Assembly (NCBI RefSeq): GCF_018977255.1
Contig: NW_024704742.1
Span: 87,298,001-87,362,000 of the forward strand
DNA from: Callorhinchus milii
Lineage: Eukaryota
Length of the DNA: 64,000 bases
Direction: 5' to 3'
The position numbers were made by a program, and so were the translations under genes. Shown here one piece after another: positions 40,533 to 64,000 of this stretch. The notes under the pieces are model-generated. The model saw nothing but the letters and a program-made list of their open reading frames with translations. It did no database searches and was not told where the DNA came from. Position 1 is the first letter of the stretch; the number at the start of each line of letters is the position of its first letter.

Positions 40533-40682
40533 ATTTCAGAAAACTTTTACTGTGATTTGAACACTGACCAGATAAAAGCATTTCTTCGTCCACACACACC
40601 TCAAATCAAGACATCCAGTCTGGCCAGATCAGCTATCTTCTCCGTAACCTATCCCTCACCAGACATTTATCTGGTCATCAAG
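40533..40682 (+). CDS. DOCK8: DOCK8 exon 9 ([23 protein letters not shown]...[20 protein letters not shown])
   Basis: cttcag|...AAG|gtacag; 150 nt. Confidence 0.96.
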
Positions 40683-41972: not shown

Positions 41973-42584
41973 GTAACTTATTTCTGTAAATCTCTTTCCG
42001 CTTTCTGGTAAATGTTCAGTTTTCTCAATCCTTCCCTCTGCCTTTCCTCTTGACAGAGAGTGTGTAACCCCCTAGCCATTCTCAGTCATTTATATTTATC
42101 TTGCTCCGAAAGCCAGTGTGGGCTGAATGTCCTCTATCTGTGCTGTAAATTTCTGTGATTCAATGATGTTTTTTCTCACAGGTCAATGCCCTGAACTTTA
42201 CGCATCTCTGAGGTCCCTTGCTTAGGTGCTTAGGTGCCTGCCAGTGTGCAGAGGGCAGACTCCTGAGAGTTGCATGTTCACTTCCAGAACTTCACACAAT
42301 GCTTCAAGTGATTGATGCTTAACTTCCTCAGAAACACTGGATAGATTTATCAGGCATGGCAAAAGCCTGCCTTCACTAAATCTATCTGCACACTTGTATC
42401 ATATTCCCCAAATGTCTTTTAGTTGCCTTATTGAGGACGTTTTTTTTCCTCCTGTATTGTTTGCTAGTAAAGTCAGCTTTTGGTCCTGTAATTTCCAGGG
42501 CCGTGTGTATTGACTCTAATACAACCATAGATTGATTAAGCACACTAATGCATTCTGTTCTAAATGTTACTTGGTATTTTTCAG

Positions 42585-42744
42585 AACAAGGATAAAATTG
42601 AGAAGCTGAAAAGTCAGGCTGAGTCATTCTGCCAACGCCTGGGGAAGTACCGCATGCCCTTTGCCTGGGCTAACATAAACCTGATGAATCTGGTCTCTAC
42701 AGCAACGGTTGACCGGGATTCACCAGAGGTTGAGAACAACAATG
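42585..42744 (+). CDS. DOCK8: DOCK8 exon 11 ([53 protein letters not shown])
   Basis: tttcag|...G|gtaata; 160 nt; visible in ORF 42564..43097. Confidence 0.96.
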
Positions 42745-43052: not shown

Positions 43053-44195
43053 GTATGCATCACTGTGTGTGCCCACTTGTATGTTTTACTAGTGTAAAGG
43101 TTCTTATTAAAATAATAATAATAATTATTGAGAGTAAAGAGTGTTTCCTCCTTTTGAGCAACACTGAATTACATTGGGATATTGTCCCATGGTGGCTCAG
43201 TCGGTCGTACTCTCGTCTCTAGGTCAAGAAGATTGGATTGCAAGCATCTTGTCAGGACTTTGAGCTCACAGTTGAGGGAAATGCTGGATTGTCTGAATAA
43301 ACAACTGTTTGAACCCCCCCCCCAAATAATGTCTAGAAAATTGTGAGGTGAAATCCTGTACACCCTCCTATCTCCACCCTCCCTGCCCTCCACCCCTCCT
43401 GATCCCAACCACCAGCTCAGGTGTAGATCCCTGACTGTCCAGCTCCTTGGGATGTCGTCCTGACGTGAAGTGCACTATACAAATGTGATTTGTTGTTGTG
43501 GTTGCTCCTAATTACACAGATGTTCCAAGAGAAATATATTTAATAATAATAATACAATAATAATCTTTGTATTTGATATAGCACTTTATCATGTCATTGA
43601 GATGTCTCAAAGCGCTTCACAGGATATACTGTAAAGTAATTTGTATATTCTGTGGACAAAATGCAACAGCCAGTTTGCACACTGCAATGTCCCACAAGTG
43701 GGTAATGAATTTGATTTGAAGGATTGTTGGCTAAGACACTGAGAGAAACTCTTTTCGCATCATGCTATAGGATCTTTAACCTTTAACCGGACCAGGCAGA
43801 CAAGACCTTGGGTTAACATCTCATCCCGAAGAATAGCATCTCCAAGAATGCATCCCCCCACCCCTCTCCAGCACTGCATTGGAGTGTCAGCTTAGACTAT
43901 GTGATTCTACGTCCCAAAGCGGGGCTTGAGCCCACAACCTTCTGACTCTGAGGCGAGAGAGTTAAATAGTAGTGTGTATCCTGTTAACGCCAGAAGCAAT
44001 TTAGCACTGGTGTTAAAAGCTTCAGACCTGGGTGAACTCTGCTTCAGGAAAAACTGTGCTGCCTTAGGTCAGCATGAGATTCAAGAGTTTGGCTGGAAAA
44101 TTACACTTTTTAAACCTCATTCCACATTTTGTCCCATTGTTCAGATATCCTCAGCTAGGCCAAGGGTGTTGAGTTTGTCTTCTTAATGTTTGCAG

Positions 44196-44289
44196 GAAGG
44201 TGAGAAGCTAAGCGACGAAGATTTGCTGAAGTTTTTGGCTGAACTGAAGAGATCTAGTGCTTCACTGAGACGGCTGCGATTGATATCAG
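44196..44289 (+). CDS. DOCK8: DOCK8 exon 13 (EGEKLSDEDLLKFLAELKRSSASLRRLRLIS)
   Basis: ttgcag|...G|gtaaga; 94 nt. Confidence 0.96.
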
Positions 44290-45286
44290 GTAAGAGTTCT
44301 GTTTTGTTCAGGTTTTAAGATTATTTTAAGAACAAACCTAGAGAATATATTAAATACAGGTGATAGGGGTGAATGAATTCACAACTTGGTTGGATTAACT
44401 TACTTGATGATTTGATTCACTACCAATATTTTGGTTTCCCTTCAAAAACACAACTGGCGACCAACAACAACAACTTGCATTTATATAGCGTCTTCACATG
44501 GGGTAGCTTCTCGGAGCTACCATATGTAGAGCAGCACTTCTCACTCACTCACATCGATGTTCTCACTTTTGTAACATCTGGAGAGATGTTTGTGCAGTCT
44601 CAGGGGGTTTGGGGTGGGGTGGGGGCAATGGGACAGGAAGGGGAAGATAGTATCCATAGTGTCCCTTATGCCCTGCAATTTGACTTTGTAGTGGTGATGG
44701 TACAAACAATCAATCATTCAGCAAGCTCCTTACCATAGTTGAAACAGCTCTGCTCATTTAGTTTCTTATTCTAATAATTTATTTTATATATTAATCTAAA
44801 TTATATATGCTTGGCAGGCACTGGCCTGCTTCACGTCTCTCTCCTTGCCCGCTCCACCATCAGCGGTCAGGCATTCAGCCTCTCTGTCCCCACTCTCTGG
44901 AGCTCCATCCCTGAGTCCCTTCGCCTCACCACTTCCCTCACTTCCTTCTCAAGACCTTCCACTTTGACTGCACCTTTGGTCAAACTTCCGTTACCCCCCC
45001 CCACACACACACTTCTGCCTCAATTAGCCCTCACCCCTCCCAAATCCAACCCCAGCTGTGGTTCAAACCCTCAACTGTCCAGCCCTTCGGGAGGTCCTCT
45101 CAACATGAAAGGGACCATGTAAATCCAATTTGCTGTTGTGGTTGTTGTTGTTGTCAATCCCTCCCTCTGATTTTTCTCACCATATACCATGTGTGATACG
45201 CAGTGTATCAGGTATATCTACGGTTGACTTGCTTGCAACCTGTGTGTTCTTTGTCGTCCTATCTGATTTTGCCGACTGTGTTTCAG

Positions 45287-45449
45287 GTCAAGTAAAGCTG
45301 GAAATCTCTCCGGCTCCAGAGAACCCTACATTCTGCCTTACACCTGAACTGTTACCCGTCAACCAGCAACCTGAAAACCGTAGCCGAGTAATAAAAGAAA
45401 TCCTGGAGTTCCCCTCTCGAGAAGTCTACGTTCCTCACACCTCCTACAG
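45287..45449 (+). CDS. DOCK8: DOCK8 exon 14 ([25 protein letters not shown]...[19 protein letters not shown])
   Basis: tttcag|...AG|gtaagt; 163 nt; ends just before the DHR-1 NLLYVYP exon, which I did not find in the window. Confidence 0.96.
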
Positions 45450-46095
45450 GTAAGTGGTCAATGTGAAACGGTTTGAAGAGACTTTGAAAATAGCTTTATT
45501 ATAAAAAAATAGACATAGAACTTGTCCAGCGGCTAGGAATTTCTGCCTGTGACTGCACGGAGGGTGAAGCTGCACAGTTAATTCTAAGCTTCTAATTGCT
45601 ACAGATAGGCAGTGATGATACTTATTGTACAGTACGATGTCAGCTCTGGCTCTCAGTGGTGTGAAGCCTAAAGTATGTGATGGATTAAACGTGATTCAGC
45701 ACAGAATCCTGAGGCAGATGGAATTTTTTTCTTTCGCTGTGTTGCCTTCCAGTCAATCATCGTGCTTGATGTGTGCACTTACAGATGTAACCACAAGAGG
45801 GAGCGTTTATCCTATTTGCAGTTGTACATTTTATGGACCCTTGGATTTGGCTGTGGTGGTAACTTACATTGTGAAGCAATAATAATAATAATAAAATAAT
45901 AATGATAAGAATCCTTGCATTTGATAAAGCACCTTATTGCATCTCAAAGCACTTCACAGGATAAACTGTAAAGTGCAGTGATTTTGTATATTGAGAGAAG
46001 GTATGAAATCTTTAAAGAAGGTGACATTTCACCCATCGAGTTAGTTATTAGTTCTAGTTATTACATCTTTATCTTTCTAATCATTTCTAATTTCT

Positions 46096-46101
46096 TTTAT
46101 T
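46096..46101 (-). promoter_or_regulatory. Candidate polyadenylation signal (AATAAA) of the nested ANGPTL-like gene
   Basis: First AATAAA I noticed on the - strand, about 480 nt after the stop; motif only. Confidence 0.3.
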
Positions 46102-46580
46102 TCTCAATACAAAATACAAGGATTATTAACATCCTTACTTTCAAGTACCCATTTACTCTTAAACCCATTTACATCTCTCTTAAACCCCTCCATTGATGTT
46201 TCTTCCAATGGGGCAGCTCATCCACAATTGAAAGCAATAACTGTAAAAAGGAAGGCCTCACAGTGAGTGGCTTAACAGATAATAAGTGGCAATGTGTATA
46301 GCTATCCCTGTTGGAGGAATGATAATGGAAGCTGACTTTTTATATAAAAAAATTAGATAATCTTGTGCCTGTTTAAATATTGACAAAAGCGACATAAGCA
46401 TGGTGTGTAGATATGAAGTAAACATTGGGCTTTTCAAATAGGGGCAATCTTATTGTAGTGTGGCCAATAGCAGGAACAGAGTAAAGCTCAAGGACTGTAA
46501 CTGTATGCACACCCACTTGTGTTTTTGTCCGTAAGGTCGTGAAATGCTTTGTCAGTTTCATTAAAGTACAGGACGTGCTT

Positions 46581-46756
46581 TTAGTTCAGACTTGTGGCCG
46601 GCCTGACCATTAGTAATGTGGATTTGAAAGAGTAATAACTGCTTTTCCAAGTCTTCCATAATATTCCTTTCTTCCGATCTGGTCTCCGTGCAATTCTAGT
46701 GCTAAAATATTTCCCGTTCAGGTTGGCTTCTCCACAGGCGCTGAACCACCACCCTC
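46581..46756 (-). CDS. Nested ANGPTL-like gene, last exon 7 (GGWWFSACGEANLNGKYFSTRIARRPDRKKGILWKTWKSSYYSFKSTLLMVRPATSLN*)
   Basis: ttttcatag|GA GGG TGG TGG; TAA at 46581-46583; GGWW...C...NLNG.Y terminus of the fibrinogen-like domain. Confidence 0.95.
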
Positions 46757-47347
46757 CTATGAAAAGAGAATGGTACAATAGGTTTCACAACAAAATAATA
46801 CGATACAAATTTACATATACACAGCGGCTTTCACACCTGGAGGATGTCCCAAGGTGCTTAATAGCCTTGGCATGTACTTGAGCTGAGGGTGGGAGCTTTT
46901 GAGATGAGGAGTGGAAGGATGACCAAAAGCAAGCTCAAGGTGGTAGGTATTGAATGAGGTGAGTGAGGGAAAGAGTGGGAGGGACCGTGAGATGGAGTTT
47001 CAGTGAGTGGGGGCAGATAGGCTGGAAACCCGACTGCCTATGGTGGGCGGGTAGGCAGGGGGGCAGACGGAGGCTGGTGCCCGCTGAGCAAAGCAAGCAG
47101 CTGGGTTGAGGAGGTCACAGAAGTAAGGTTAGGCAAGACTGTAGAAGGATTTAAAAGTGATAACAAAGTGTGTCAGTGTGACCTATAAGTTCAAGTCCCA
47201 GTGTGTTTGAATACTGAGATGCAACGAACGCTGATGAGATCTCTACTCAGCAAGAAAGAAATGAAAAACCTCCCACACACTGATTATGCCAGAGTTGCTG
47301 TTGGTATCAATGGCTACTGGTATTGTTTGTAGTTTACAGTAGAATAC

Positions 47348-47623
47348 CTGAATGTTTCTGGGCGCAGTTTATGGCACTGTGGAGGTCATTGTCTCGATCA
47401 CTGGTGCTGAAGGGGACGTCTTTACACTCGCTCATGGCTGATGGAAGATCTCCCGTTACCATCTGACCAATTTGTAGAGTGTAGCCGTTGTCCTCACCGC
47501 TCAGTCTAAAGGTGTACTCAATCCAGCTTGTGTTGTTCTTCCAATCCTGCAGTTTTATCTGCAGCAGGTATTTGCCCTGGCGAGCAATCTGGTAGAAATT
47601 TTCTAAACCCAGCCAGAATTCAC
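47348..47623 (-). CDS. Nested ANGPTL-like gene, exon 6 (GEFWLGLENFYQIARQGKYLLQIKLQDWKNNTSWIEYTFRLSGEDNGYTLQ...PFSTSDRDNDLHSAINCAQKHS)
   Basis: gtccag|...G|gtattc; 276 nt, open frame, phase 1-1. Confidence 0.95.
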
Positions 47624-47805
47624 CTGGACAGAAAGAGTTGATTTTATTTTGGTCAACTAAGTATCTGACACAATCGGAAACCCATCACCATGCTTAAGAG
47701 TATCCTAACCAAACAGTTCCATAATAATAATAATCCTTGCATTTGATATAGTGCCTTATCACATCTTCAAGACGTCTCAAAGCGCTTCACAGAATATACT
47801 GTAAA

Positions 47806-48121
47806 TAAATAATAATCCTTGCATTTGATATAGCGCTTTTCACGTCGGGAGGACGTCCCAAAGCGCTTCACAGAATATACTGTAAAGTGAATTGACTGTA
47901 TATTTGTGGGCGAACGCGGCAGCCAATTGCGCACAGCAATGTCCCACAAACAGTCGTAGATTGAAAATGACCAATTTATTATTGTTTTGGGTTTTTTGGA
48001 GGGATTATTATTAGGCGTGTGGAGTAAGGAAACTTGCCCAAGGTTTCGCCCTGCCTGGAATTGAACCCAGGTGTCTTGCTTGCAAAGCAAGTGCTCTAAC
48101 CACTGAGCTACAGGACTCCAC
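47806..48121 (-). mobile_element. Young tRNA-derived SINE nested in an older SINE (47722-48355), with ~28-bp target-site duplication
   Basis: Near-identical to 49945-50272; CAAAGCGCTTCACAGAATATACTGTAAA at both 47778-47805 and 48121-48148. Confidence 0.9.
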
Positions 48122-49944
48122 AAAGCGCTTCACAGAATATACTGTAAAGTGAATTGACTATACTTTGTGGGCGAAATACAGCAGCTAATTACACCCAGCA
48201 TTGTCCCACAAACAATCGTGGATTGAGTGACCAATTTATTATTTTTTTTAAACAATTATTACCCCTGGAAAAGCCAATCGACTAACAACCTGGTTCCAAC
48301 TTACTGCTATGTAAACAGAGGCGTGTGGAATAAGGAAATTTGCCCAACGTTTTGCATAGGTTTCTATGAAGAGCACTGCCTGGCAAGCTTTCCTGTTGCT
48401 TGTCCAGCTAGGACCACCTATCTGTTGGGTCTTAAGCTTGCAGGGTTAACATAATTAATTAAAGATGGAGGAGGGACAGGAATTCCATTTTGTTTTCTTT
48501 TCATCCATTTGTGCAGTTATTCAAATGTGCTTGTGAAATACTTCCATCTGGAAATGGAAGTTTCAACGAGAGGACATCAATTTAAGAGCCAAGAGAAAGG
48601 TTTTTTTTACACAGAGAGTTGTTAAGGATGTGGAAAGCACTTCTGGATGCAGCGGTTGAGGCAGAATCCATATTAGCTTTCAAGAGGGAATGGGATATAT
48701 ATTTAAAGAGGATCAATCTCCACGGGTATTTGGAAAAGGCAGGTAAATGGAACTGAATGGATAGCTCTTTCAAAGGACCAGCAAATGGGCTGAATGGCCT
48801 TCTGTACTGCAGATTTCTGTGGTTCTAAACCGCCTTATTTTTGTGTGGAAAATTTAGTCTGCTGCCAGAACTAGCAGTAATATCTGGTGTGTGTGTCCAA
48901 CTGGAGGATTCTGATCAACAAAAAAAATCATATAATCTATGTCATATAAGTTACTCATGCCACAAGCCCATGAGAGTAACTTTGCTGCAGGAGTTTTAAT
49001 AAATTATTTTGGCCACCGTGTATTTTGTTCATTGGATCTATTTTTGCTGCACTGTGCATTATCATAATAATCATCAACATCATAATTCTTTTAATTGATA
49101 TAGTGCCTTCTCATGTCGTCAAAACAGCTCATAGGGCTTCACATGATTTACTATAAAGTGTAATGACTGTAGGCAAATCAGAAATTAATGCATTAGAATG
49201 CAGGTTGCCATAATTATTGATGTTACGTGATATGTTCCATCAGATATGTTCCTTTGCTGCTGTGGTGCAAAGTGTGTCCCTTCAGTGTGTTATTCCAACT
49301 CATGCTGGCATTTGTCAAACCCTTGTTGGTGGCTTCATCTCCCTTATAAGGTGTTAAAAGTAGTTCTAGCAGTCGTATAAACCACTGAAATAATTGGATG
49401 ACATGTCGAACAGTTACATTGTACATGATGCTATTACTTCAGAGTTTTCTGTGGTGGAATTAAACCATGGAATAAAACTATGTTAAAAGAAGCCATGTGT
49501 GAATAACGAGCTGCATTAGTAACAGACTGAGGTAAAGCTTGACAAAGGCCCTCATGGCCTCTGGCATGGTGGTGCAGTTTAAGCATGGAGATTATAGTCT
49601 CCCTATTGGTAGGTCTCCCTATTGATTTAGGATGGAATTTAAACCTCTGTGTGCATTGACGGCACTGTTTATTCATTCATTCAGTCTGTGTACACTTCCT
49701 TTGATCATCACACATTTTGACGGTATAACTTTTCACTTTTCTTTAATTTGCCACTACTCCCCAAAACTCTGGAACACTCTCCCTCAATGCCACTGCCTTA
49801 GTCCCTCTCTCCCCTTTTTCAAGTCCCACCTAAAAAACCTTCCTCTTCGACCGTGCTTACGGCCAACTCCCCCTGCCCCCAGCTTGGAGTCAGGCTCCAC
49901 CACTTTTAAGCTCTCTGCGTGGAGGGCGTTATATAAGTGCAAGT

Positions 49945-50272
49945 GTGGAGTCCTGTAGCTCAGTGGTTAGAGCACTCGCTTTGCAAGCGAGAGACCTGAG
50001 TTCAATTCCAGGCAGGTCAGGGCGAAACCTTGGGCAAGTTTCCTTACTCCACACGCCTAATAATAATCCCTCCAAAAACAAAAACAATAATAAATTGGTC
50101 ATTTTCAATCTACGACTACTTGTGGGACATTGCTGTGCGCAATTGGCTGCCGCGTTCGCCCACAAATATACAGTCAATTCACTTTACAGTGTGTTCTGTG
50201 AAGCACTTTGGGACGTCCTCTCGTCGTGAAAAGCGCTATATCAAATGCAAGGATTATTATTTTTATTATTTT
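49945..50272 (+). mobile_element. Full-length young tRNA-derived SINE (internal-deletion subfamily)
   Basis: Head GTGGAGTCCTGTAGCTCAGTGGTTAGAGCAC (A box)...GTTCAATTCC (B box); L2-like 3' end AAGCGCTATATCAAATGCAAGG(ATT)n. Confidence 0.92.
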
Positions 50273-50709
50273 AAGTTGTTGTTGTTGATTGGGGGACATC
50301 TACAGTTAGTTGCTGGTGAAAGATGAAGATTCCAGCAGTGAGAAAGAGGTTTGCAATTGATGAAACAGCAATCTCTCACTAGAATTCCTATCTCCAATTT
50401 CTAGGAGGGTCCAGTTTCAAATGCTTTTTACTGAACTCTGACACCAGGTGCCGAGAGTACAATCAGTTTATAGCAAGTGGTGAGCACTCCCATGATAGTT
50501 ATTAAATCATAATTATGACTGAGGAGCTGACAATGAAGGGCCTGTTTTAAGAAGGTGATCAATTCGCTAATCTCATTTTACTTTTAGCCATATATTTAAT
50601 GAGGAAACCTTTAGAAATAAAATTTATTAAAATAAAATTGTCTTGTTAATAGTTGAACGTTATGAAAGTAAAATTACAGTACCCGGTGTGTTTAGTGCCA
50701 GAGTCTTAC

Positions 50710-50805
50710 CACTTAAGTCTCCAAATCCAGTTTTATAATCCAGCCACGGTCGATCAAAGTCCTCAGAGCCATCAATTCGCCGCTGGATCATAGTCCATCC
50801 AGACT
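50710..50805 (-). CDS. Nested ANGPTL-like gene, exon 5 (ESGWTMIQRRIDGSEDFDRPWLDYKTGFGDLS)
   Basis: tcacag|...G|gtaaga; 96 nt as recalled for ANGPTL3/4 exon 5; GWT.IQRR.DGS.DF motif. Confidence 0.95.
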
Positions 50806-52357
50806 CTGTGAGAGTGAGAGAAATCAGCACATGCTTTAGACCAGAGATTGTAGAGTGGCTGTTCACAACTGTTCTATTTTTGGTCAGCTGAATGCCTGAG
50901 ACATGCAGAACCCCATCGCCATGCTTAAGAATATCCAAACCAAACTGAGAATTACATGCATCCAACCTACACAAACTGCTCTTAGAAGATTATATTAATT
51001 AATAAATAATTAATAATAAACCTTACATTTGATGCAGGGCCTTTCACATCAAGAGGCAGCTTCACAAGATTTACTGTAAAATGCAGTGACTGGGTTTTAG
51101 GAAAAACTGAGCAGCAAAAATTATGTAATTATTTTACTTTTAAGTTGCTTGTAAATGCTCATGATACAAGTCTTCAGTCTACGTAGGTCTCATTCTTTCC
51201 ACTGCTTTACTACTTCCAAATCCATTTGACCTCTGAGTAACTGTCGATAGGTTTTGTTCCAGTCATTCTCTCATACTCACGCAAGTCACAATTCTGCTGT
51301 CTTAAAATAATTTTTCATTCATTTCATTCAGATCATCCCATTAAAACAACTGCTCTTCAATGTGCAGCCAATTACTGTTAGCCCATCCGATCTCATCCTT
51401 CCCTGCCATCCCCACATCACAGCATCAAGCTGATTTTTAAATGAGTCCAGTGACTTGGCCTCTACCATCCTTCCTGCCAACCTGTTTCAGTCATTAATTA
51501 CTCTGGGTAAAGAAAAACTTCCTGGTGTCTGTCCTGAAATGGCCCTTTACAACTCTAAACTATGTCCTCTTGTTCTACTGTCTTGATGCAACTTTGTGGA
51601 GTCCTGTAGCTCAGTGGTGAGAGCACTTGCTTTGCAAGCGAGAGACCTGGGTTCGATTCCCGGCAGGGTGAAAATAATAATCCCTCAAAAATGTTTTCTT
51701 TGTCATTTTCAATCCACGACTGTTTGTGGGACACTGCTGAGCGCAATTGGCTGCTGCATCTCGCCCACACATATATACAGTCAATTCACTTTACAGTCTA
51801 TTCTGTGAAGCTCTTTGAGACGTCTAGAAGACGTGAAAAGCGCTATATCAAATGCAAGGATTATCATTACTATTGTAGTATTGATCTGGTTTTACGTTTT
51901 AAACCCTATTTAAAAATAGGGGAGTAGTCTTCTCTCAAGAATGAAGAGCCCTGGGGTAATTTGTGCTCTGTGTAAGAACAGGTTTCAAGCCCCACATCAG
52001 GAATTTGAGCTGACAGTCCAGGCTGACACGCCAATGCTGGGAGAGCACAGCTTTGTTGAACAGGTAGACACTAAACTGAGGTCCTGTCTGCCTGTTCAGT
52101 GGATATTAAAGAGCCTATGGCACTAGTCAAAAGGGAGTTTCTCCCAATGTTCTGGCCAAATTCTGCCAATGGTTTTTCACTTCATGGCTGTTTGTGGGAT
52201 ATTGTTGCGTGCAAATTGGCTGCTGCATTCACCTACAATTTCAAAGTCACTAATCTCTGGATCACTTTGAGATGTTTTGATGTGATAAGGAGGTATATCA
52301 AATGCAAGAATTGTCATAATATTATTTCCAACTTTGCGATGACATATTGAAACTAAC

Positions 52358-52462
52358 CTGGAGTCATTTGGCAATAGGTTTTAAAAGGCTGCGATCCTTT
52401 TGGCTGTATGCTGTAAATGCCACTAGTTCTTTCGCCCCTCCTGAAAATCTGTTGGCAGTCAC
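52358..52462 (-). CDS. Nested ANGPTL-like gene, exon 4 (DCQQIFRRGERTSGIYSIQPKGSQPFKTYCQMTP)
   Basis: gtacag|...G|gttagt; 105 nt, phase 1-1; start of fibrinogen C-terminal domain (DC...G..SG.Y.I.P...F..YC.M). Confidence 0.93.
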
Positions 52463-52805
52463 CTGTACCATGTGAAAATATTTAAATGGTATAATTGAAC
52501 CAGTCTCTGAAGTAATACTTAATCAGCTGTTAAACTATCTCTTTGTTTTGTTACCCTATTTGCAGCTCTGGAGGCTGGGGGGGGGGGGGGGGCGGAATTG
52601 GTGTAACTGAGGGTGTCTCTGGTGTGGGCTGCCTGTGCTACACACACCTTGTGTTGCCCCGGTGCTGTTTTTTTAGTGCAATGACTTATTGGATACAACT
52701 GTGTTGCCAACATGGTGCTGCTATTCACATATGCTAACCCAATGAAAATACCCATCGTTGCACGAGTGCTCTGCTGAAAACTGCACGGAATCAGGGCAAC
52801 AGCAA

Positions 52806-53853
52806 ACCAAACTTTTTTGTAAGCAAAATAGAAGCCCACGGTATTAAAGGGACAGTGGCAGCATGGATACAGAACTGTCTGGGAGATAGAAAGCAGAGAG
52901 TGGTGGTGAACGGTTGTTTTTCTGACTGGACGGAAATGTGCAGGGGTGTCCCCCAGGGGTCAGTATTGGGATCACTCCTGTTTTTGATCGATATAAATGA
53001 CCTGGACTTGGGTATAGGAAGTATAATTTCCAAGTTTGCAGATGATACTAAGCTAGGAAAAGTAGTAAACAGTGAGGAGGCTAGTAGCAGACTGCAAGGG
53101 GACATAGACAGACTGGTAAAATGGGCACACACATGGCAGATGAAGTTTAATGTGGAAAAATGTGAAGTGATGCACTTGGGGAGGAAAAATGAGAAGAGGA
53201 AATATAAACTAGATGATACGATCTTAAAGGGTGTGAAGGAACAGAGAGACCTGGGGGTTCATATAAGTAAATCTTTGAAGGTGGCAGGACAGATAGATAA
53301 AGCTGTTTTAAAAATATACAAGATACTAGTTTGTAAATAGGGGCATAGAATACTTTGTAAATAGGAAGTTATGATGAGCCTTTATAAAACACTGGTTAGG
53401 CCTCAGCTAGAGTACTGTGTTCAGTTCTGGGCACCACACTTTAGGAAGGATGTCAAGGCATTGGAGAGGCTGCAAAGGAGATTTACCAGGAATGAGGGAC
53501 TTCATGTTATCAGGAGAGGTTAGAGAAGCTAGGATTATTCTTAGAGCAGAGAAGGTTAAGAGGAGACTTAAGAGAAGTTTTCAAAATTATGAAGGGGATT
53601 CTTCACACAGGGAATTTTTTCACACAGCGAGTTGTTCGGATCTGGAATGCATTGCTTGAAAGGGTTGGAAGCCGATTCAATAAGAGATTTTAAGAGAGAA
53701 GTACATAATTATTTGGGGAGGATAAGTTTGCAGGGCTATGGGGAGAGAGCGGGGGAGTGGGATTGAATTGGACAGCTCTTTTCAAAGAGCAGGCACAGAC
53801 ACGATGGCCTGAATGGCCTCTTTTTGTGCTGTATAATTCTATGATTCTATGAT
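52806..53853 (+). mobile_element. CR1 LINE fragment (RT C-terminus plus 3' UTR) in intron 3 of the ANGPTL-like gene
   Basis: ORF 52855..53340: GVPQGSVLGSLLFLIDINDL...ISKFADDTKL...WQMKFNVEKC; (ATTCTATG)n tail. Confidence 0.93.
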
Positions 53854-56800
53854 TAAATGCAGGCAGAGGCCGGAGAGGACCACATGATTGTCTGGCAGCT
53901 TTGTGTTTGTGATGTACCTCCGTCAGGTTTAATTTGCCCATTTTTCCACCTTTGTGGAAGGTGCAGAAAGAAAAGTGTCTAACTCCCACTTCCTTTGTGG
54001 CATGTCGGTGTTGCATAAGTTGTTGTGTAAGACGGGAAACCGTCCTGCCCATTCCAGGTTGTGTTGTTGGAATGTGTGTAGCCTCATCAAGTTTACAACG
54101 ATGCTGTGTTTATAATGTCCTTGAAGAACAAACAGCTGGCAGAACAGCTGTGGTGCAGAATGGGATTGAAGGATTCGGATTCGTACAATCACGCAGAATT
54201 AAAGTCTCTAACCACAAGAAAATAAGAATAAACTTTGATGCCCTGACTTGGCCTTGTGGAATTGCTCTATTGAAAAATTACTATTTCAACTTTCTTTTTG
54301 TTTGAAAAAAAATCTGAATTGCTCAGACTCTGCTGGGTGAACAGCAAATATAGTCTTGAGTTAGTTTGGTTATGGGGATGTAGCTCACTTTCATTTTTTN
54401 AAAGGTGCTTGTTTGAATTCCTGCCATCGATCACGTGATGGGAATGGGACCCTGCCTTCTGGCTGTATGGGAGCCATGTTGACTTCTGTCCAATTGGAGT
54501 TTCTACAAAGCTTATTGCACGACAGCCGGAAGCAAACATCTAACTTTAACATTGTCCATAATTTCCTTTGGATAAAGGGCAAGGCTGTTTGTGTTTTTCC
54601 CCTCTATAAGTTCTTGACAATGAGCCTGTTGTAGAGTCTTATCCTGGAGAATCCCTTTGAACCTTCAATACAGTCCTAGCTTTGTACTTTGTATTTATAT
54701 ATTTATTAAGATTTATACAATTTGTAGTCACTATCATACTATTATTAAAAATAATATTTTAATGACATTCAATATTTATATATAATATTTATTATAAGCA
54801 ATCTTGGAAGCTACCCTGCATAAGGGAGGCTATATAAATGCAAGTTGTTGTTGCAGGGCTATAAAATAATATTTGTGCACTGTATTTCTTGTTATGCTCT
54901 TGATTCTGCCATCTCATGGCATTGCCGGTTGGAGGATTTTGGTGGTTTTGCATCACCAAATGGTATATAAGCATTGCTTCAAGCTGTGGATTAAACAGTT
55001 TCTTACCCCCACTGCCTATCCGCTGACTCTGCTGCCTCCGCTCAGCAGGCTCTGGCCTCCTGGTTCATCCCTTACCCCCTGCGCTCCACCATCGGTGGCC
55101 GTGCTTTCAGCCACTACGCCCCAAACTCTGGAACTTTCTCCCTCAATCTCTCTGCCTTGCCCCCTCCCTCCCCACTTTTAAATCCTAGCTAAAGACCTTT
55201 CTTTTTGATTGTGCTTACGGTTATCTCCCTCTCCCCGTGGCTCGGGGTCAGACTCCACCATTGTCAAGCGCTCCAGGACTCTATCCCGTGTGAAGAGGGC
55301 TATTTAAATGCAAGTTGTTATTGTTGTTCTTCAGACACTGAAGAAGCCCAAATGGATTCTTCACCCAAAAAGCCTCATGTTTCACACACACATGCTCACT
55401 GCAACGTGTTATCCTTTAATGGTAGGATGAACTGATGGACACTCGATAAAGAGGGTAGTTTAAGCAGGATGACTTTAAGATGCCTTGAAGGACTTTCATG
55501 ATACAATTGAAAGTGTAAGCTGTTAGCAGCAGTGTGCCCATCAACAATTAGTGTCCGCACACATAGCATCCTGTTTATTGATGTCTACATACACCAGTGG
55601 AATACTACATTGCTGATGTAAGAAATAGCATTGTAGCCAGTAGAGAACTTACTCAGTTCTCCATGAAGCCATAGAAATATATGTTTTAGGAACTTTTATG
55701 CCAGTTGTCCCTTTTACTAATTTCTCCTGATTTCCCTCCATCTGCGACAAGAAGAGACAAATGCTCTGCAACCAAGGTCACAAGTGCCACTTTTTGTTGC
55801 CTGTCTAGAAATTCTTAAAAGCCATCTGATTTATCCCTTCTCCCTGTTAGAGAAGAGCTTGACATCCACTCAGTGCCTCCTCACAGTAGGGATGGTTGTA
55901 GTGGCCTGGGTATTGAATCCGTGTTGTTCCCCTCTGTTGTGCAACTCGCTGGTGCTCAGATACACTGCACCACTGTTTTGCTTGCAACACAGGGAGCATA
56001 TTTGCCTTGCACTACATCGTCATCCAAAAGAATTACAACTTGCATTACCTGGCATCGCTTCAAATGCTATTCAGGAAGCCAATGTCTGAATAGATTTGTT
56101 TTATGCCTTTAATCCCTGTGTAGCATTTATATTTGCTTCCTGTCCACTTAGTCACCCCTTTGCCTTTCACCTACTTGGAGCTTGGCCAGGGACTGAGCTC
56201 CCTAGTGAGTAGACGATCTGGATTGCATTATGTACAGAGTGAAAAGTACAGCGCTCTCGGCCTTCGTTAGCAGCACTCTGGCTATTCAGTTGATATTTTT
56301 ACAACCAGATTTTCCATTCACTGAAAGTTGAAAGATCAGGTTGCGCTTGTTCATATCTTTCCTCTCGCTCCAGATGCCGCTGTGCATCGCATCAACAGCA
56401 GTACAGAGCTTGTAGCCGTCCATTTGCCTCAGACTGTTCAGTAATCAGAGCCATGTGTATGCCCTTTGTTCCAGTTATGTCCTGCAATATTAAGCACTGT
56501 CACTTTTCAAGATCATTACTTTAGACAAAAGTTTCTTGAAAATGTTCTTTGCGTCAGAAGCTTGTTTCTAAAAAAATCTCTCAAAAGCAATTGGCAAAAT
56601 GTATTTTGGCCATATTCCGAATAAAGTTTCATTCTCTCCTTGCTGGTCCCCTTGTTTTCCCCTCTACTCCTCTGTCCACAGTATGTAGATAAAGCCCCTA
56701 TCTTCTCCTCTTTACCTGGATATTGGAGTCTGACAGCCCCACAGTTTGGATACCCTCTGGTCAATCACAGGCCCTCAAGCCATGGGGCTTGGATATAGCT

Positions 56801-57805
56801 TGGACCCATCTCTGCAAACAGGAGTTGCCCTGAATGTCACAATCTTGGTTCAAAACTGTCCCTGAAAAGAATAAATACGCTCATTCTGGAGCTGGATCTG
56901 AAGAATTTTAGAGGAAAGTGAGCAGAGTGTGATGTGCACAAAAAATTGCGGTTAGAGTTTCTCTGGTCAAAGTCAGAGCATACCTCCTCCTAAAATGGAG
57001 AAACTCGCAGATATGAGTGGAGGTTTTGTTGCAGCTTTTGAAGCATTGGTATGGAACTTAGAAAAGGATGAAAGGAAAGGAGTTTGTGTTTACAGTGGAG
57101 TCCTGTAGCTCAGTGGTTAGAGCACTCACCTCGTAGGTGAGAGACCTGGGTTCATTTCCGGGCAGAGCAAAACCATAGGCAAGTTTCTTTACTCTACACA
57201 CCTGATAATAATCCTTCAAGAAAAAAAACAGTAATGAATTGGTCACTTCAATCCACGACTGTTTGTGGGACACTGCTGTGCACAACTGGCTGCCACGTTT
57301 CGCCCACAAAATATACAGTCAATTAATTTTACAGTATATTCTGTGAAGTGCTTTGAGACATCTAGAAGACGTGAAAAGCACTATATCAAATGCAAGGATT
57401 ATTTATAGGATTATTACAGTGACCATCCAGCAGCACCTTGAAGCTAACCCATAGTTCTGACACCAGGAGGATTAGGAAATGTAGCAAAATGTCATCCATC
57501 ACAACTTGAAGCTCAATGAGCATTTCCTCAAACCATCAGGTGGTAGTTAGGTGTAGAAGATAGTCATCATGCATAGAAATTGATTTGCAGTCTGTAGAGC
57601 CTGCAGTTTATCTTTTCACTTTCCTTAACAAGAAGTCGCTGGTTGTAGTTATTAATCTAAAATCTTTCAGTAATTTAAAGTTGGTAAACTTGTTAAAGCT
57701 TCCCTAAGATTTTTGATATTCAAATGAGGAGAATAAATTCCTTCATCTGAATATCTGTGTCTGCAGCACTTCAATCAGGATTAATATAAACAAAACCATA
57801 CTCAC

Positions 57806-57911
57806 TGTCAGCTCGGGCTGCCTCTCGTGGATTCTGTTGATCAGCGGAACTGTTGTTTCCCTTCAGTTTCTTTCTCAACTTTACATGCTCCCTGGCCTCC
57901 CTATTTAAAAC
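57806..57911 (-). CDS. Nested ANGPTL-like gene, exon 3, linker (VLNREAREHVKLRKKLKGNNSSADQQNPREAARAD)
   Basis: Pyrimidine tract ctttcttttctctgtctggag| ...A|gtgagt; 106 nt, phase 0 to 1, links exon 2 to exon 4 in frame; acceptor is a rare GAG. Confidence 0.7.
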
Positions 57912-57989
57912 CTCCAGACAGAGAAAAGAAAGGTGACCACATATCTCCTTTTAGAAAGTGTTTGAGTATGCATGGCATCCAACAGAGCC

Positions 57990-58450
57990 CACAGCGTCCT
58001 CTCTCAAAATGTGAAGCAGGCCGGAGCCTGCTGAGTGAAGGGAGCGGGCAAGTTGGTAGGGGGTTAGGAGGTCGCAGAGATAGGAAGGAGCAAGGTTACG
58101 AAGAGTTTTGAAGGTGGGGACCAGGATTTTGAATCCTGTGCGTGATAGGAAGTCAGTGGAGTCGGGCAAGGATGGGTTGTGGAGCCTGGGGAGGGAGAGG
58201 ACATGGGCTGCAGAGTTCTGGATGATCTGCAACCTATGGAGGAGTTGGGGAAGCCGACAAGCAGGGAGTTTGCATAGTCGAATCTGGATGTTATGAATGG
58301 GTGTATGAGTGTCTCTGTGGCCTGCGGTGTGAGATAGTGGCGGAGCTGAGTGATGTAGTAAGGTGGCCGAAGGCGCAGTTGAAGAGGAAAGTCTTGAGAC
58401 AATGGAGCGAGCGAGGCAAAGGGAATGTGGGATGGAGTTCCATAGGGTGT
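57990..58450 (-). mobile_element. L2 LINE fragments
   Basis: ORFs 57951..58232 and 58064..58483: ETLIHPFITSRFDYANSLL, FKILVPTFKTL. Confidence 0.85.
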
Positions 58451-58817
58451 GGCGGTGGGAGGGGGATTTAACTCCAAACCCATAATTGGGGACTGTTTTT
58501 TAATGTGATCTCTCTACTGTTTCGTAATTATCGCCAGTGATGCTGTTGAGAATTGAAGCTGTTTTGAACCTCAAATAAAAACACTCCCCTGGACAGTGCG
58601 ACACCAGATACATCAAAAACATAAAACTTCAAAACCTTCTCCTATACAATCTGACAGAAAACACAGGGGGTCATTGCAGGAAATATCTTCAATTCTTCAC
58701 TCATCACCCTTCCCTGCTCCTCAAAATATTCAGTTACTTTATAAAGGGCTTTTGGTGAGAACAATCTGCTGTTAATGAGCACACGCGAGAAGTTCACTGA
58801 GAGTGAGGGGCACACAC

Positions 58818-58928
58818 CTTGCCAAGCAAGTGTTGAATCTGTTCGCTCTGCTCATTGATTTGCTGCTGCTGTTCCTCCACCAGTGCCAGAAGTTCATCTG
58901 CACTCAGTCTGTGAGCCTCCGCCGCAGC
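58818..58928 (-). CDS. Nested ANGPTL3/4-like gene, exon 2, coiled coil (AAAEAHRLSADELLALVEEQQQQINEQSEQIQHLLGK)
   Basis: ttatag|...AAG|gtgtgt; 111 nt, phase 0-0, same size and phase as recalled ANGPTL3/4 exon 2; heptad pattern. Confidence 0.88.
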
Positions 58929-59525
58929 CTATAATAACAATAATTAATAATAATAATAATCCTTGCATTTGATATTGCACCTTATCATATTGTTGAGACT
59001 CAAAGCGCTTCACAGAATATACTGTAAAGTGGATTGACTCTATATTCTGTGGGTGAAACGTCCGAATCACTTCTTGAAGGTGATGGGCTGTAAATGAGCC
59101 CCACACTGCTGGTGAACATGAGATTCTTTACTCTGATCCTGAAAGGGTTCAGCTTTTAAAGAGTTTGCATTTTCAGACTCTCAGTTCACCCTGCTACATC
59201 TTTGTCAGATGCATAGTTTTGTGTTCTATGTGTGTGGTGTGTGTGCATACATACGTGTAAACTTTCATAAGAACATAAATTATACCCAAACTGTTTTTGT
59301 GCTGTTTACTGGTGCTATGCAGAGTATAGCACATGTTTTATTCCCAAAACATTTTGACCCAAAACTCGGGGTTCATGTTATACTCACGTGGAGACTATTC
59401 TGGTCTAGCTCCTGCCCTGCTCAGGATCAGTTGCTCTCTCTTCCCCCACCACCCCCGTTCTTATGAATACAAATCTTTCTTAATGTCACTATCTCACATC
59501 CCGGCCCGGAAATCTTTACTGCTTA

Positions 59526-59852
59526 AATAATAATAATAATAATAATAATCCTTGCATTTGATATAGCGCTTTTCACGTCGGGAGGACGTCCCAAAGCGCT
59601 TCACAGAACACACTGTAAAGTGAATTGACTGTATATTTGTGGGCGAACGTGGCAGCCAATTGCGCACAGCAATGTCCCACAAACAGTCATAGATTGAAAA
59701 TGACCAATTTATTATTGTTTTTAGTTTCGGAGGGATTATTATTAGGCGTGTGGAGTAAGGAAACTTGCCCAAGGTTTCGCCCTGCCTGGAATTGAACTCA
59801 GGTCGCTCACTTGCAAAGCGAGTGCTCTAACCACTGAGCTACAGGACTCCAC
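59526..59852 (-). mobile_element. Full-length young tRNA-derived SINE
   Basis: Near-identical to the 47806-48121 and 49945-50272 copies. Confidence 0.92.
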
Positions 59853-62800
59853 GATAATAGTGAGAAGAGAATAAACTAGTATCTGTTTGAAACAAAATGC
59901 AGATGAAAGCTCTTTGCAAGACAATGTATTGGTTTTACTGTGGTGTTTCTCTGCTGGCCTTCTTGATCCTTTCACAAGTCTGATGAATTGCATAATAACG
60001 GCATTTGGTATAGCGCCTTTCTCTTCTGGAGGATATCCCAAAATGTTTCACAAGATAAAGTGCAGTGACAGTGTTTATAAGGGCAGTGAAATGGCAGTCC
60101 ATGCTCTAAAAATGCTAATAAAGAAAGCGCCAATCTAACACCCACTAACCTGGCTCCCATGTATGATTGTGTTTTTTTGAAGAGGAAGCAAACTCCAGTC
60201 CCCATCCCCCTCCAGCTCAGACTTTAGGTTTAGGCCTCTGCTGCAGTTCTGCTAGACACCGGCCTGCTTCATGTCCCCCCACCCTAATTTTACTCTAAAC
60301 CTGCAGGATGCTTGCTACACAAGGAATAGATTTCCTAGACAATGTTGGTATGTGTTTACACAGTCTGCATCCTGGAATGCTGAGCTTGCACAAAATGCCA
60401 AAAGGCATGTCGAGGCTCGCAGGCGTGTACCAGTTTATTAATTATAGACCTGACAGTTCTCCTGCTCTGTGTGCGTGACTCTCAGATCTCCAATCCTGTG
60501 GCACACACACGTGGATATTGACAGTGTTGTCTGCACTTGCCTGAGTTACGCTTGTGAGAGACTGCCTAGTGCATATGCTCTGAAATCAGGTGTTGCCTAA
60601 GGGGAGCTGGAATATCCATTGTCTAATGTTTTAGGGTGTAATGATTTTCCTTTTGAATGAGACGATTATGAAATTTGTGCTCATGTTCAGGGAGCGCTGC
60701 ATTGCCGGAGGTGCCGTCCTTGGGATGGAACATTAAGCCGAGGTCCCGATTGACTGCTTGAGTAAACTTTAAAGACCCGATTCAAAAAGAGAAGAGAGTT
60801 TCTGGCCAACAATCAGTTCTGGCCAACTGACTTTGTTGGACATTTGGTCTGGGAAATTGCTTCCCTATTAACCTATAAGTAAATAGTCACTGCACTTCTC
60901 AGCAATTATCTATGAAACACTTTGAGATAGTTCAACATTCGGTCCTGCATCACCTGCAAGGATTATCATCATTTGTCCAATGACAAAAATCAATTCTTTT
61001 GCATCGGGATCATTGTTTTGAAAAAAAATTAAGCCTCGCCTAGAATTATAGATATTCAAATTGAAATTTCTCACTTTTCCCCCTAGGAGTCTATTAATAA
61101 TTTATTATAACAAATGTTTTCCCTCAAAAACACTTGACACAACTCGTGCTGTGGTAACTACTCACAGTAGTTATCAAGTACAAGGTAAACATCGAGAGCA
61201 GACTGCTTAATGTCAACCAGAATATACACAGCTGGGCAGTGTTACCCCTGTCGGGAGCCCCTCAGTGTGGAGTGTTATATGAACAGATGCAGATCAGAAG
61301 TATTTTAATTGAAAGTTCCACTTCAGCGGTATTTAGACAAAGTGGGGAAAAAATGCCTGAGAGGGCGTTCTTGTTCAAAAAATAACCTATTGTTATAACT
61401 CAGCATTTTTTAGCAAGGGAAACTCGTGCTTCAGTATCCCAGCTCAGGTACCAAGCCAGGACTGTTAAGCCCCTTGGGATACCCTCCCATTGTGAAAGGT
61501 GTTATATAATATATGTATATAAATGTATGTATGTCATTTTTTTATTGTGCTGCACATACACAGGACCTTTTACTCCTGCACTTGGCTGCTCTGAAGTTTG
61601 TTGTGCAGAGGAATCAGAGATATTCTGTTGTGTTTAGGGAGAGGGCTGATGCTTTGCGTGAAAATGGATCCAGATCTCCCCGACCTCAGGAAAGTTCAGC
61701 ACCAGCGAGTACACAGTACATAGGTGGACCAAAGCTCTTGTCACACTAGATACAATGGAACACACCTAGCTTCTCTCCACCATAGATATTACCGGACTTG
61801 CAGAGGCCAGGAGATGGGTTCCTCACTCACGGGGAAGTACTGGTTTATATATAAAATATATTAGGGAACAATTTGAGCCTCTTTTGAAGACTATGAGGTT
61901 GGGTTTCAGGGTGGCCCACGTCACCTTGACATATGCTACAGGACATTCACTGTGTGGCAATCCTTGTCAGCACAAGGAGAATACTTGGTTCCTGACTTGG
62001 AGGTGATTCACAAAAAATGTTAGATAAACTGGTATAGCCTGCTGACCCACTGGTAAACACAATCTCTGGTCCGGAAAGTTAACTTTGTTTGTTTGCCTAC
62101 TATAACAAACAGTCACTAGACCTCCCAGTAATTACCATGAACTGCTTTGAGATGTTAAGACATGATAAGGCTCTATAAAAATGCAATAGCTTTTTTTCTT
62201 CTTTCATTCAGCTGAGATAAAAACCTGAAAGTTGGGTTTACAGTTTTTTTTGGGTCAGCCGGGCGTCTGATCACATGCGGAAACCCATGCTTAAGAGAAT
62301 TCCAAACCAAGCTGAGATTTCTATATATCCCACCTAGACATGGAAATCCCAGAGATAGACTGTTGGAATGGAATGCGCACTCATCCTGGAGGGATTCATT
62401 CTGCTTACCTAATTCCAGAAAGTATTAGGTCAGGTTGGCAAGAGCCAAGTCTTGGGGACCCCAGAGTGTGCGTTATGGGTACTGCTGGAGTCTAACCAGC
62501 TAAAACCACATAGCTTGCCATTGATATTGTTGTCCGGCAAGCTTTCCCACTGCTTGTCCAGCTAGGACCACCATACCCACTAGGGCTTTGGCTTGAAGGG
62601 CTAAAAGGAGTTGACTAGTCTGCCCTTCCAGGTCCTGCCAGTGATCAGGCTGCCTGTGCTGTCATCAGCAGTGCCCTGGAACACTGCGGACCCGCCTGGC
62701 TCAGGAGCCAGGCTACCAAGTCCGTCACAGAGTGCTGGCCCGATTCTGACATTCCATTACTGGGCATCTCACCTTGGAGCCAGTTCAGTCCCAAGGAGAC

Positions 62801-64000
62801 CCCGCGTCACTTTTATGTTGACATGAACATGTTCAAAGACATTTTGCACAGTTCTGGAGCCACCACACCCACCTGCACATGCCAGGTGTCCCTTGAGGAC
62901 GAACGACAAGGCCTAATATAATAATCCCTCCAAAACAAAAAAAACAATAATAAATTGGTCATTTTCAATCTACGACTGTTTGTGGGACATTGCTGTGCGC
63001 AATTGGCTGCCGCGTTCGCCCTCAAATATACAGTCAATTCACTTTACAGTGTGTTCTGTGAAGCGCTTTGGGACGTCCTCCCGACATGAAAAGCGCTATA
63101 TCAAATGCAAGGATTATTATTATTATTATTATAAGGCGCTCTATCAAATATATAAAGGATTGTTATTATCTCAGGATCTCATTCGTAACATGTACTGTAT
63201 TTTTTCAAATTAAGTTCAAGCAAATGAATATATCAGAAATGTGAATAGATGTTTGGTCACATATAAAAATAGTCCAGAGGCCGACATTCCACCTAACCTA
63301 AGATAATTTTCTTGAAAAGATTAAGATTCCTACAGAATTAGTAGGAAATTTAGAAGCTGACTTTCCTTCAGTTCTCAAAGCAACCGCTTCCAAATTAGGA
63401 CTGAATTTGAGAATTTACAATAGTGCTGAACTATTCTCTTTGAGCGCAGAATCTTACAAGAACACGAAAAAGTGTGAAACAATGAAAAGCGATCAGCACA
63501 TCAAGCCCGGCCCTTATCTAAAAACAATCACGTCAAGGTCTTAATGCCATGGACTCTAGCTCCCAGCCCGAAAATTAATCATTCAATGACATCACCTAAC
63601 CCTATGATCAGAGCAGCTTCTTGAAATCACACCAGTGATGTATACTTATGGAGTATAAACATCAGCATGGACTAGTTGAGCAAAATAGCTTGTTTCTGTG
63701 CCCTATCACTCTGTGTAATTCTATGTCAAAGTGGGTCTAATATAAACACGGTCATTTTCTAACTAACTAAGGCAGCTGGAAGCAAGTCGTGCTGACTAAA
63801 TATGAACTTTGCTCCAGTCTACAGCGCAGCAGAGCTCCTGCAGGTCACCATGAATGTACAGGATGCATGTTCTGGTTTCTGGAAGGCGTCTCTGAAGAAA
63901 CCACTTTAGATATTGTTGACAACAGCAACTTATATCGTGCCCTTCACTCTGGTAACATCTTTAAGCACTTATAAGACCCCATCATAAACTTCAAATCCAG

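Follow-up and report, generated by a model that had tools for sequence, protein, structure and literature searches.

The DNA analysed here, called the window throughout, is a stretch of 64,000 nucleotides from the genome of the elephant shark Callorhinchus milii, corresponding to positions 87298001-87362000 of its contig (C1, NCBI NW_024704742.1). Its central feature is, with good confidence, an intact and transcribed gene of the ANGPTL3/4 type, made of seven exons, lying antisense within an intron of DOCK8 and belonging to an ancient, separate group of paralogs, which we designate X. Six exons fall within the window, between positions 58928 and 46581 of the minus strand, while the first lies just beyond its end; the host gene runs on the plus strand.

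Structure and product of the nested gene

The exon model was derived by enumerating, on the minus strand, all pairs of AG acceptors and GT donors located at most 15 nt from the limits of tblastn matches. Among the complete combinations, just one gave a product identical, letter for letter, to part of a database protein, namely residues 164-452 of P0001, a C. milii protein of 452 aa (XP_007890824.2, UniProt V9KRY7); the sole difference in a second AG/GT solution was a 99-nt first exon starting at 58916. Exon 2 (58928-58818, 111 nt), supported by its AG/GT ends and by the exact match to P0001, encodes residues 164-200, within the coiled-coil, and exon 3 (57911-57806, 106 nt) encodes the basic linker KLRKKLKG, as placed by the linker alignment. 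The fibrinogen-like domain begins in exon 4 (52462-52358, 105 nt), continues through exon 5 (50805-50710, 96 nt) and exon 6 (47623-47348, 276 nt), and ends in the coding part of exon 7 (46756-46581, 176 nt including the TAA stop). Exon 1 was found at window-equivalent positions 64863-65352 (C1:87363352-87362863, minus strand): it opens with an ATG at C1:87363352, 1.35 kb past the window end, and after 163 codons and one further base it reaches a GTAAGG donor. The complete coding sequence thus spans C1:87344581-87363352.

The Pfam Fibrinogen_C profile is matched in order by four of the exons (profile positions 4-37, 31-71, 73-166 and 171-220 of 221), with single-exon E-values ranging from 2.8e-6 to 4.9e-14; the whole protein matches it over residues 236-447 with an E-value of 4e-59, which indicates a complete domain. 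Exon 1 encodes the stretch FATSDDVNLIAYGLLQLGQALKHHVD, resembling the SE1 motif, and the N-terminus, read directly from MKTFYFAMMICFVNPACVLG, is hydrophobic. Searching solved structures with exon 1, that is with the N-terminal domain, returned only chance coiled-coil matches, at E-values of at least 0.28. As judged from its sequence, the product would be secreted; its hydrophobic N-terminus is followed by a coiled-coil carrying an SE1-like motif, then by a short basic linker and, last, by the complete fibrinogen-like domain.

The initial annotation, made from the letters of the window, had listed six minus-strand exons of 111, 106, 105, 96, 276 and 176 nt, had predicted an exon 1 beyond position 64000, and had suspected that the gene was already annotated automatically under an ANGPTL3/4-like name. 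Splice-site enumeration and the match to P0001 bear out the six exons exactly, and exon 1 was located where expected, with a motif of the LxxGLLQLG type. The protein is indeed present in databases, under three differing names: 'angiopoietin-related protein 3' at NCBI, '3-like' in an older version of the same record, and '4-like' in UniRef.

Transcription

Thirteen sequencing runs contain the stretch; none is on record as RNA, nine were guessed to be RNA, and four were aligned to the window. Two contigs from two different studies, one of 762 nt (run X2) and one of 289 nt (run X8), join 46755|47347 and thereby skip the 591-nt intron between exons 6 and 7. The 3' untranslated region can be followed over 45944-46580 (minus strand), as far as the contigs reach: record 1 of run X1, a contig of 1313 nt, extends over 45944-46755 and has another 504 letters that map elsewhere, and record 10 of run X2 covers 46370-46755. 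Since a genome search found the exons of the gene at a single locus only, the spliced contigs do not derive from a processed copy. Spliced transcripts of the gene therefore exist, and the search for transcripts across its junctions, proposed along with the initial annotation, has an answer for the exon 6-7 junction.

The host gene and the nesting intron

The host, on the plus strand, is named 'Dedicator of cytokinesis 8' in UniRef, and sequence comparisons identify it as DOCK8. Its DHR-2 domain was compared with solved structures of mouse DOCK8 (529 bits over 280 residues), DOCK7 (507 over 283) and DOCK6 (528 over 347), DOCK8 being the best match per residue; its DHR-1 domain matches the solved DOCK8 DHR-1 with 336 bits. 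In the alignments the C-terminal stretch visibly follows DOCK8, whereas DOCK6 and DOCK7 have another version in common. A gene with a KN motif, hence of the KANK type, with an open exon of 897 residues, lies about 130 kb past the 3' end of the host, and human DOCK8 and KANK1 follow each other in the same order, according to PMC4306731. These data, together with the assignment of the genome's two remaining DOCK-C loci to different paralogs (see below), uphold the identification of the host given in the initial annotation. Among the host motifs that it had named, LGDFPDDDL, DCVQTY and VPHTSYR were located at plus-strand positions 33151, 34660 and 45430, and a further one, of 12 residues, is encoded across a splice junction.

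Tblastn of P0122 and P0123, along with inspection of flanking bases, placed 11 DOCK8 coding exons in the window, between 33034 and 45450, the limits being good to within a few bases: 33034-33237, 34636-34707, 36220-about 36345, 37128-37358, 37973-38059, 39292-39378, 40530-40682, 41877-about 41972, 42582-42728, about 44190-44291 and 45280-45450. About 12-14 host exons precede the nest, at least one or two being upstream of the window or missed; a motif search for host exon 1 gave no match within the window. The last exon before the nest (45280-45450) takes P0122 to residue 484, its final letters being VPHTSYR, and gtaagt comes directly after it. The next one (C1:87369999-87370127) begins with NLLYVYPQRLNF, the start of DHR-1. 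The intron between them (C1:87343451-87369998, the preceding exon ending at C1:87343450) measures 26.5 kb, the first 18.5 kb of which (45451-64000) lie in the window and the remainder extends to window-equivalent position 71998. All seven exons of X are contained, on the opposite strand, within this one intron, just before the DHR-1 domain.

The UniRef DOCK8 model, P0122, seems to include non-coding sequence. Its last 18 residues match a repeat copy at 59774-59827, inside the intron holding X; residues about 373-398 derive from 44088-44165, after which the genome has an in-frame stop; and its first residue, M, corresponds to S in the genome, the N-terminal DOCK8 exon or exons being missing from the model.

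ANGPTL3, ANGPTL4 and the other DOCK-C loci of the genome

Loci for ANGPTL3 and ANGPTL4 were sought in the same genome by using the Pristiophorus proteins as queries. ANGPTL3 was found on contig C5 (4068014-4075434, minus strand) as six high-scoring segment pairs, 48-82% identical to the query, and ANGPTL4 on contig C21 (210-14311, plus strand), with 44-67% identity. When these loci were projected onto the queries and placed in a tree, the C5 locus grouped with ANGPTL3 of cartilaginous fishes (support 98), the C21 locus with ANGPTL4 (99) and the window gene with X (100). Separate ANGPTL3 and ANGPTL4 loci, which the initial annotation had proposed to look for, are thus present. The ANGPTL4 gene starts 210 bases from the beginning of its contig, and 324 of the 461 query positions are covered. 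This position at the contig edge may explain why C. milii ANGPTL4 is missing among the 120 protein matches listed out of 261, and also the 26% identity to the human protein given for elephant-shark angptl4 by Costa et al. 2017.

Three DOCK-C loci were found in the genome, on C1 (DOCK8), C5 (DOCK7) and C29 (DOCK6), and the DOCK8 protein was used as a ruler on the latter two to establish intron homology. At all three, one exon extends to residue 484 and the following one starts from residue 482 of this ruler. On C1 these exons end at 87343450 and start at 87369999, and the intron between them carries all seven X exons in antisense. On C5 they end at 4065969 and start at 4078254, and the intron (4065970-4078253, 12.3 kb) carries ANGPTL3, also in antisense. 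On C29 they end at 2741833 and start at 2742867; the 1033-bp intron (2741834-2742866) was found to contain repeats or repeat-like frames, and no ANGPTL-like reading frame. X and ANGPTL3 therefore lie, within one genome, in introns that correspond to each other in two paralogous hosts; the nesting of ANGPTL3 in DOCK7 had been named as established in the initial annotation. Human ANGPTL3 and ANGPTL8 are likewise described, in PMC6371847, as antisense genes in intron 14 of DOCK7 and DOCK6.

The C5 locus is assigned to DOCK7 because its DHR-2 exon best matches the solved structure of DOCK7 (166 bits, as opposed to 138 for DOCK8 and 136 for DOCK6) and because a USP1 exon lies 9 kb downstream. The latter is a frame of 263 residues (C5:4114277-4115065, minus strand) matching USP1 structures with 130 bits (E 1e-36); a Pfam search of this frame gave no match at E 0.001. 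The order KANK4-USP1-DOCK7-ANGPTL3 has been published (PMC4422726). The C29 locus would be DOCK6, an assignment held with less certainty than the previous one: an exon scores 100.5 bits against human DOCK6, compared with 84.9 for its C5 counterpart; the DHR-2 exon is nearer to human DOCK7; and C29 is the sole DOCK-C locus remaining.

X as a separate group of paralogs

The phylogenetic analysis was based on the 120 listed protein matches. A FastTree of 129 rows included, besides these, six additional sequences, some named and some not, as well as three outgroups (126 ingroup rows); a more careful maximum-likelihood (ML) tree, under LG+C20, was restricted to 40 rows, those left out for speed being mostly birds and teleosts. 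Outgroups and a few named mammalian sequences came from a search of a representative library, whose matches were otherwise mostly multi-domain invertebrate fibrinogen proteins.

In the FastTree, X consists of exactly ten cartilaginous-fish rows, with support 100, one from C. milii, seven from sharks and two from skates (XP_038660620.1, XP_072372969.1, XP_078425244.1, XP_067839368.1 and XP_078286454.1 are examples of the shark and skate members). The remaining 110 listed matches all fall outside it, and it contains no bony-vertebrate protein, so that among the matches listed X appears so far confined to chimaera, sharks and skates. The ML tree supports X at 82/100, ANGPTL3 at 99/99 and ANGPTL4 at 99/100, the last two clades each including cartilaginous fishes, and separates the three groups together from the three invertebrate outgroups at 100/100. 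Pristiophorus japonicus possesses X, ANGPTL3 and ANGPTL4, and in Scyliorhinus torazame X and ANGPTL3 are found on contigs of different size.

Joining X to ANGPTL4 of cartilaginous fishes is rejected by the approximately unbiased (AU) test (difference in log-likelihood 24.1, p 0.00037), and so is joining it to their ANGPTL3 (65.7, p 0.00011). These rejections and the separate clade imply that X is not a copy of either gene made within the shark lineage. It is very improbable that X is a duplicate of ANGPTL4 or ANGPTL3 specific to cartilaginous fishes, which diverged rapidly after being inserted or copied into DOCK8 by chance. Its occurrence, among the listed matches, in cartilaginous fishes only, and its long stem branch (0.5 changes per column in the ML tree) would fit such an origin, but both groupings that it predicts are rejected, and an independent insertion would have reached the intron homologous to that of ANGPTL3 in DOCK7 only by chance. 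Going by the trees, X is older than the split between cartilaginous and bony vertebrates.

There is next to no probability left for the simplest explanation, by which the gene would be the ordinary ANGPTL3 or ANGPTL4 ortholog of the elephant shark. In its favour are the database names, 'angiopoietin-related protein 3' at NCBI and 'angiopoietin-related protein 4-like' in UniRef, and the single angptl3 and single angptl4 assigned to C. milii by Costa et al. 2017 (PMC5237311); the genome, however, holds a separate ANGPTL3 in DOCK7 on C5 and a separate ANGPTL4 on C21, each with orthologs in cartilaginous fishes. The separate clade, the AU tests and the three loci in one genome agree with the initial proposal that the gene is an ortholog of neither. 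A role as the sole ANGPTL3/ANGPTL4 ortholog, also considered for the window gene, is ruled out by the same three loci.

N-terminal motif, conservation and possible function

Near the N-terminus, the C. milii protein carries an SE1-type motif (LxxGLLQLGxGL), which reads LIAYGLLQLGQALKHH in the alignment; the SE1 region of Heptranchias and Rhinoraja is GLLQLGQGLKQH, and the Heptranchias motif is LAHGLLQLGQGLKQH. The GLLQLG core, otherwise invariant, is kept in the X proteins of chimaera, Heptranchias and Rhinoraja. Galeomorph sharks show the variant GLYLLGKGLKEH. The SE1 motif is said, on the word of Lee et al. in 2009 as relayed by Costa et al., to define lipase binding, and the galeomorph change may, from the sequences, correspond to a functional shift within the X group. 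The linker contains a conserved basic patch, aligned with the cleavage region of ANGPTL4. Within X (chimaera, sharks and skates), the fibrinogen-like domain shows pairwise identities of 70-92% (mean 79.5%) and the N-terminal part of 42-82% (mean 61.8%); at the sequence level, these values are consistent with constraint since chimaeras and sharks diverged.

We give an even chance to the possibility that the main role of X is to bind and inhibit, through its N-terminal domain, lipoprotein lipase and/or endothelial lipase; like ANGPTL3 and ANGPTL4, X would then add a third regulator of triglyceride partitioning. A somewhat less probable alternative is that X acts mainly through its fibrinogen-like domain, by signalling at the cell surface or through the matrix, a mode of action reported for the C-terminal portions of ANGPTL4 and ANGPTL3, or in some other way that does not involve lipases. 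The fibrinogen-like domain is in fact the best conserved part of X, and two features tell against a lipase inhibitor: the SE1 core is altered to GLYLLG or GLYLVG in galeomorph sharks (P0003, P0005, P0008, P0009), and the alignment shows no canonical R-x-K/R-R convertase site in the X linker, through which the N-terminal domain could be released. Against this alternative, however, the SE1-like stretch is near-canonical in chimaera, Heptranchias and Rhinoraja, and the N-terminal region can be aligned with ANGPTL3 and ANGPTL4 along its entire length.

Proposed origin by duplication of a KANK-DOCK-C block

Linkage makes whole-genome duplication the most likely origin of X. According to this model, an ancestral ANGPTL gene would already have been nested in a single ancestral DOCK-C gene, beside a KANK gene, before the genome duplications, and the two early vertebrate duplications would have copied the block into DOCK7 with ANGPTL3, DOCK6 with ANGPTL8, DOCK8 with X, and ANGPTL4 beside a KANK gene. 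The DOCK host would have been lost next to ANGPTL4, X would have been lost in bony vertebrates, and the DOCK6 guest in C. milii. In C. milii a second KN-motif gene is found on C21, 0.6 Mb from ANGPTL4. Linkage of KANK3 to ANGPTL4 and of KANK2 to DOCK6 is reported in PMC4904190, where the four KANKs are attributed to the two rounds (2R) of duplication.

The order of events within this model may be read from the hosts. Over 1326 shared columns, DOCK7 and DOCK6 of C. milii are 74.7% identical, while their identity to DOCK8 is 64.0% and 62.0%, respectively; if rates were similar, DOCK6 would pair with DOCK7, and X would consequently be predicted to pair with ANGPTL4. The protein data lean the same way (sister support 43/22, identity in the fibrinogen-like domain 53.7% versus 47.8% for ANGPTL3, ANGPTL4-like SE1). 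The full scheme, to which we assign somewhat better than even chances, would comprise the blocks KANK1-DOCK8[X], KANK4-DOCK7[ANGPTL3], KANK2-DOCK6[ANGPTL8] and KANK3-(DOCK lost)-ANGPTL4, with X, the 'missing' fourth member, retained by cartilaginous fishes only and probably sister to ANGPTL4, ANGPTL8 an ancient copy that gave up its fibrinogen-like domain rather than an innovation of mammals, and a control of lipases by three inhibitors in cartilaginous fishes, animals that store lipid in the liver.

A number of observations count against X as an ancient, transcribed paralog group that arose by block duplication. On the phylogenetic side, the outgroups are three long-branched invertebrate proteins and the trees include neither ANGPTL8 nor other vertebrate ANGPTLs; the groups compared by the AU test were named after the first quick tree had been seen; the sister grouping of X and ANGPTL4 has a support of just 43/22 in the ML tree and 68 in the FastTree; the AU test rejects neither X with ANGPTL3 (p 0.265) nor ANGPTL3 with ANGPTL4 (p 0.475); and the absence of X from bony vertebrates rests on the 120 matches listed out of 261. 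As to linkage, KN-motif genes lie near only two of the four blocks, and searches of the entire genome gave no such gene on C5 or C29 (two matches among ten candidates in the KN_motif search, two among four in the KANK1-exon search); tblastn of the 30 kb downstream of DOCK7 and of DOCK6 detected no KANK, which is not evidence of absence; the C21 gene, which can be called KANK-type in general terms, is as far as 0.6 Mb from ANGPTL4; and the empty DOCK6 intron of C. milii requires a further loss. Nesting of X in DOCK8 is documented in one species, C. milii. Finally, the run labels are coded, 'RNA' being a guess on record, and the contigs speak to splicing rather than to tissue or level.

Some of these points would equally suit an old X that reached DOCK8 without whole-genome duplication of the nested pair, either as a tandem copy made before 2R or as a later segmental copy moved between paralogous introns. 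The low support and the unrejected alternatives for the order of X, ANGPTL3 and ANGPTL4 would fit such a route, as would KANK linkage seen in this genome for two blocks only. We nevertheless consider this route unlikely: in one and the same genome, two DOCK-C paralogs carry a guest gene in the same orientation and in corresponding introns, the same holds for DOCK6 and DOCK7 in human (PMC6371847), and the higher identity of DOCK7 to DOCK6 than of either to DOCK8 fits a two-step duplication of whole blocks.

Other features of the window

At least six copies of an interspersed repeat of about 200-330 nt, some in one orientation and some in the other, are present in the DOCK8 intron (47808-48121, 50018-50277, 51681-51882, 57090-57228, 59525-59857 and 62918-63135), most pairs being 82-98% identical. 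The depth of run contigs over the corresponding bins reaches tens to hundreds of thousands, and the repeat fits a very abundant element of the short interspersed (SINE) type. Between exons 3 and 4 of X, a plus-strand open frame of 200 residues (52738-53340) matches Pfam RVT_1 (E 1.5e-12), and is probably an intronic fragment of a long interspersed element (LINE). A single N occurs in the assembly at window position 54400.

Significance

No paper on an ANGPTL gene in DOCK8, or on a third paralog of the ANGPTL3/4 type in cartilaginous fishes, emerged from a literature search whose coverage stopped short of subscription journals. The one family-wide ANGPTL study covering the elephant shark reports one angptl3 and one angptl4 for it (Costa et al. 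2017, PMC5237311). X is already annotated, its separate identity and meaning having apparently escaped recognition: the automatic names '3', '3-like' and '4-like' hide a distinct orthology group, which is corrected here.

The clearance of triglycerides from plasma is held back chiefly by three proteins, ANGPTL3, ANGPTL4 and ANGPTL8, two of which are targeted by drugs. The origin of this trio has been loosely described, ANGPTL8 as having arisen 'by duplication' and ANGPTL4 as a gene that 'is not in an intron' (PMC4172915). The finding that a third DOCK-C paralog holds, in its corresponding intron, a third gene of full length indicates that the nesting had arisen before cartilaginous and bony vertebrates diverged, and suggests that the ANGPTL-in-DOCK arrangement is older than jawed vertebrates. 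The four-block model is concrete and can be tested with existing chromosome-scale genomes. X also offers a natural sequence variant of the lipase-binding type of N-terminal domain, of use for comparative biochemistry.

Comparison with ANGPTL4, ANGPTL3 and ANGPTL8

Against solved structures, X scores highest with ANGPTL4 (236 bits) and ANGPTL3 (230), followed by angiopoietin-2 (183), ANGPTL2 (159) and ANGPTL6 (144), and among the listed matches named ANGPTL4 and ANGPTL3 proteins can be aligned with it over 92-100% of the query, at 36-44% identity. ANGPTL4, the best structural match, has the same domain order, shows the highest mean identity to X in the fibrinogen-like domain (53.7%), and shares with it an SE1 of the type FAS.D(E/D).N.(I/L)AHGLLQLG.GLK.H.D; the KRR/RRKR site in its linker aligns with the basic patch of X. 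In contrast to X, which is nested in DOCK8, ANGPTL4 does not lie inside any other gene (PMC4172915), and in this genome it occupies a separate locus on C21; X moreover forms a separate clade, and its union with ANGPTL4 of cartilaginous fishes is rejected by the AU test.

ANGPTL3 is a seven-exon gene of the same type as X, similarly placed in antisense in the homologous intron of a DOCK-C host, but this host is DOCK7 instead of DOCK8. The fibrinogen-like domains of ANGPTL3 and X are only 47.8% identical and their N-terminal parts 29.6%, and the SE1 of ANGPTL3, which reads FAMLDDVRILANGLLQLGHGLKDFVH, differs from that of X.

ANGPTL8 is another member of the family located in antisense in a DOCK-C intron, that of DOCK6 (PMC6371847, PMC4172915), and has been reported from mammals only, according to Costa et al. 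2017 (PMC5237311). X does not qualify as its ortholog: the literature describes ANGPTL8 as lacking the fibrinogen-like domain, whereas X, hosted by DOCK8, carries the domain in full, and is thus set apart from ANGPTL8 by both host and domain.

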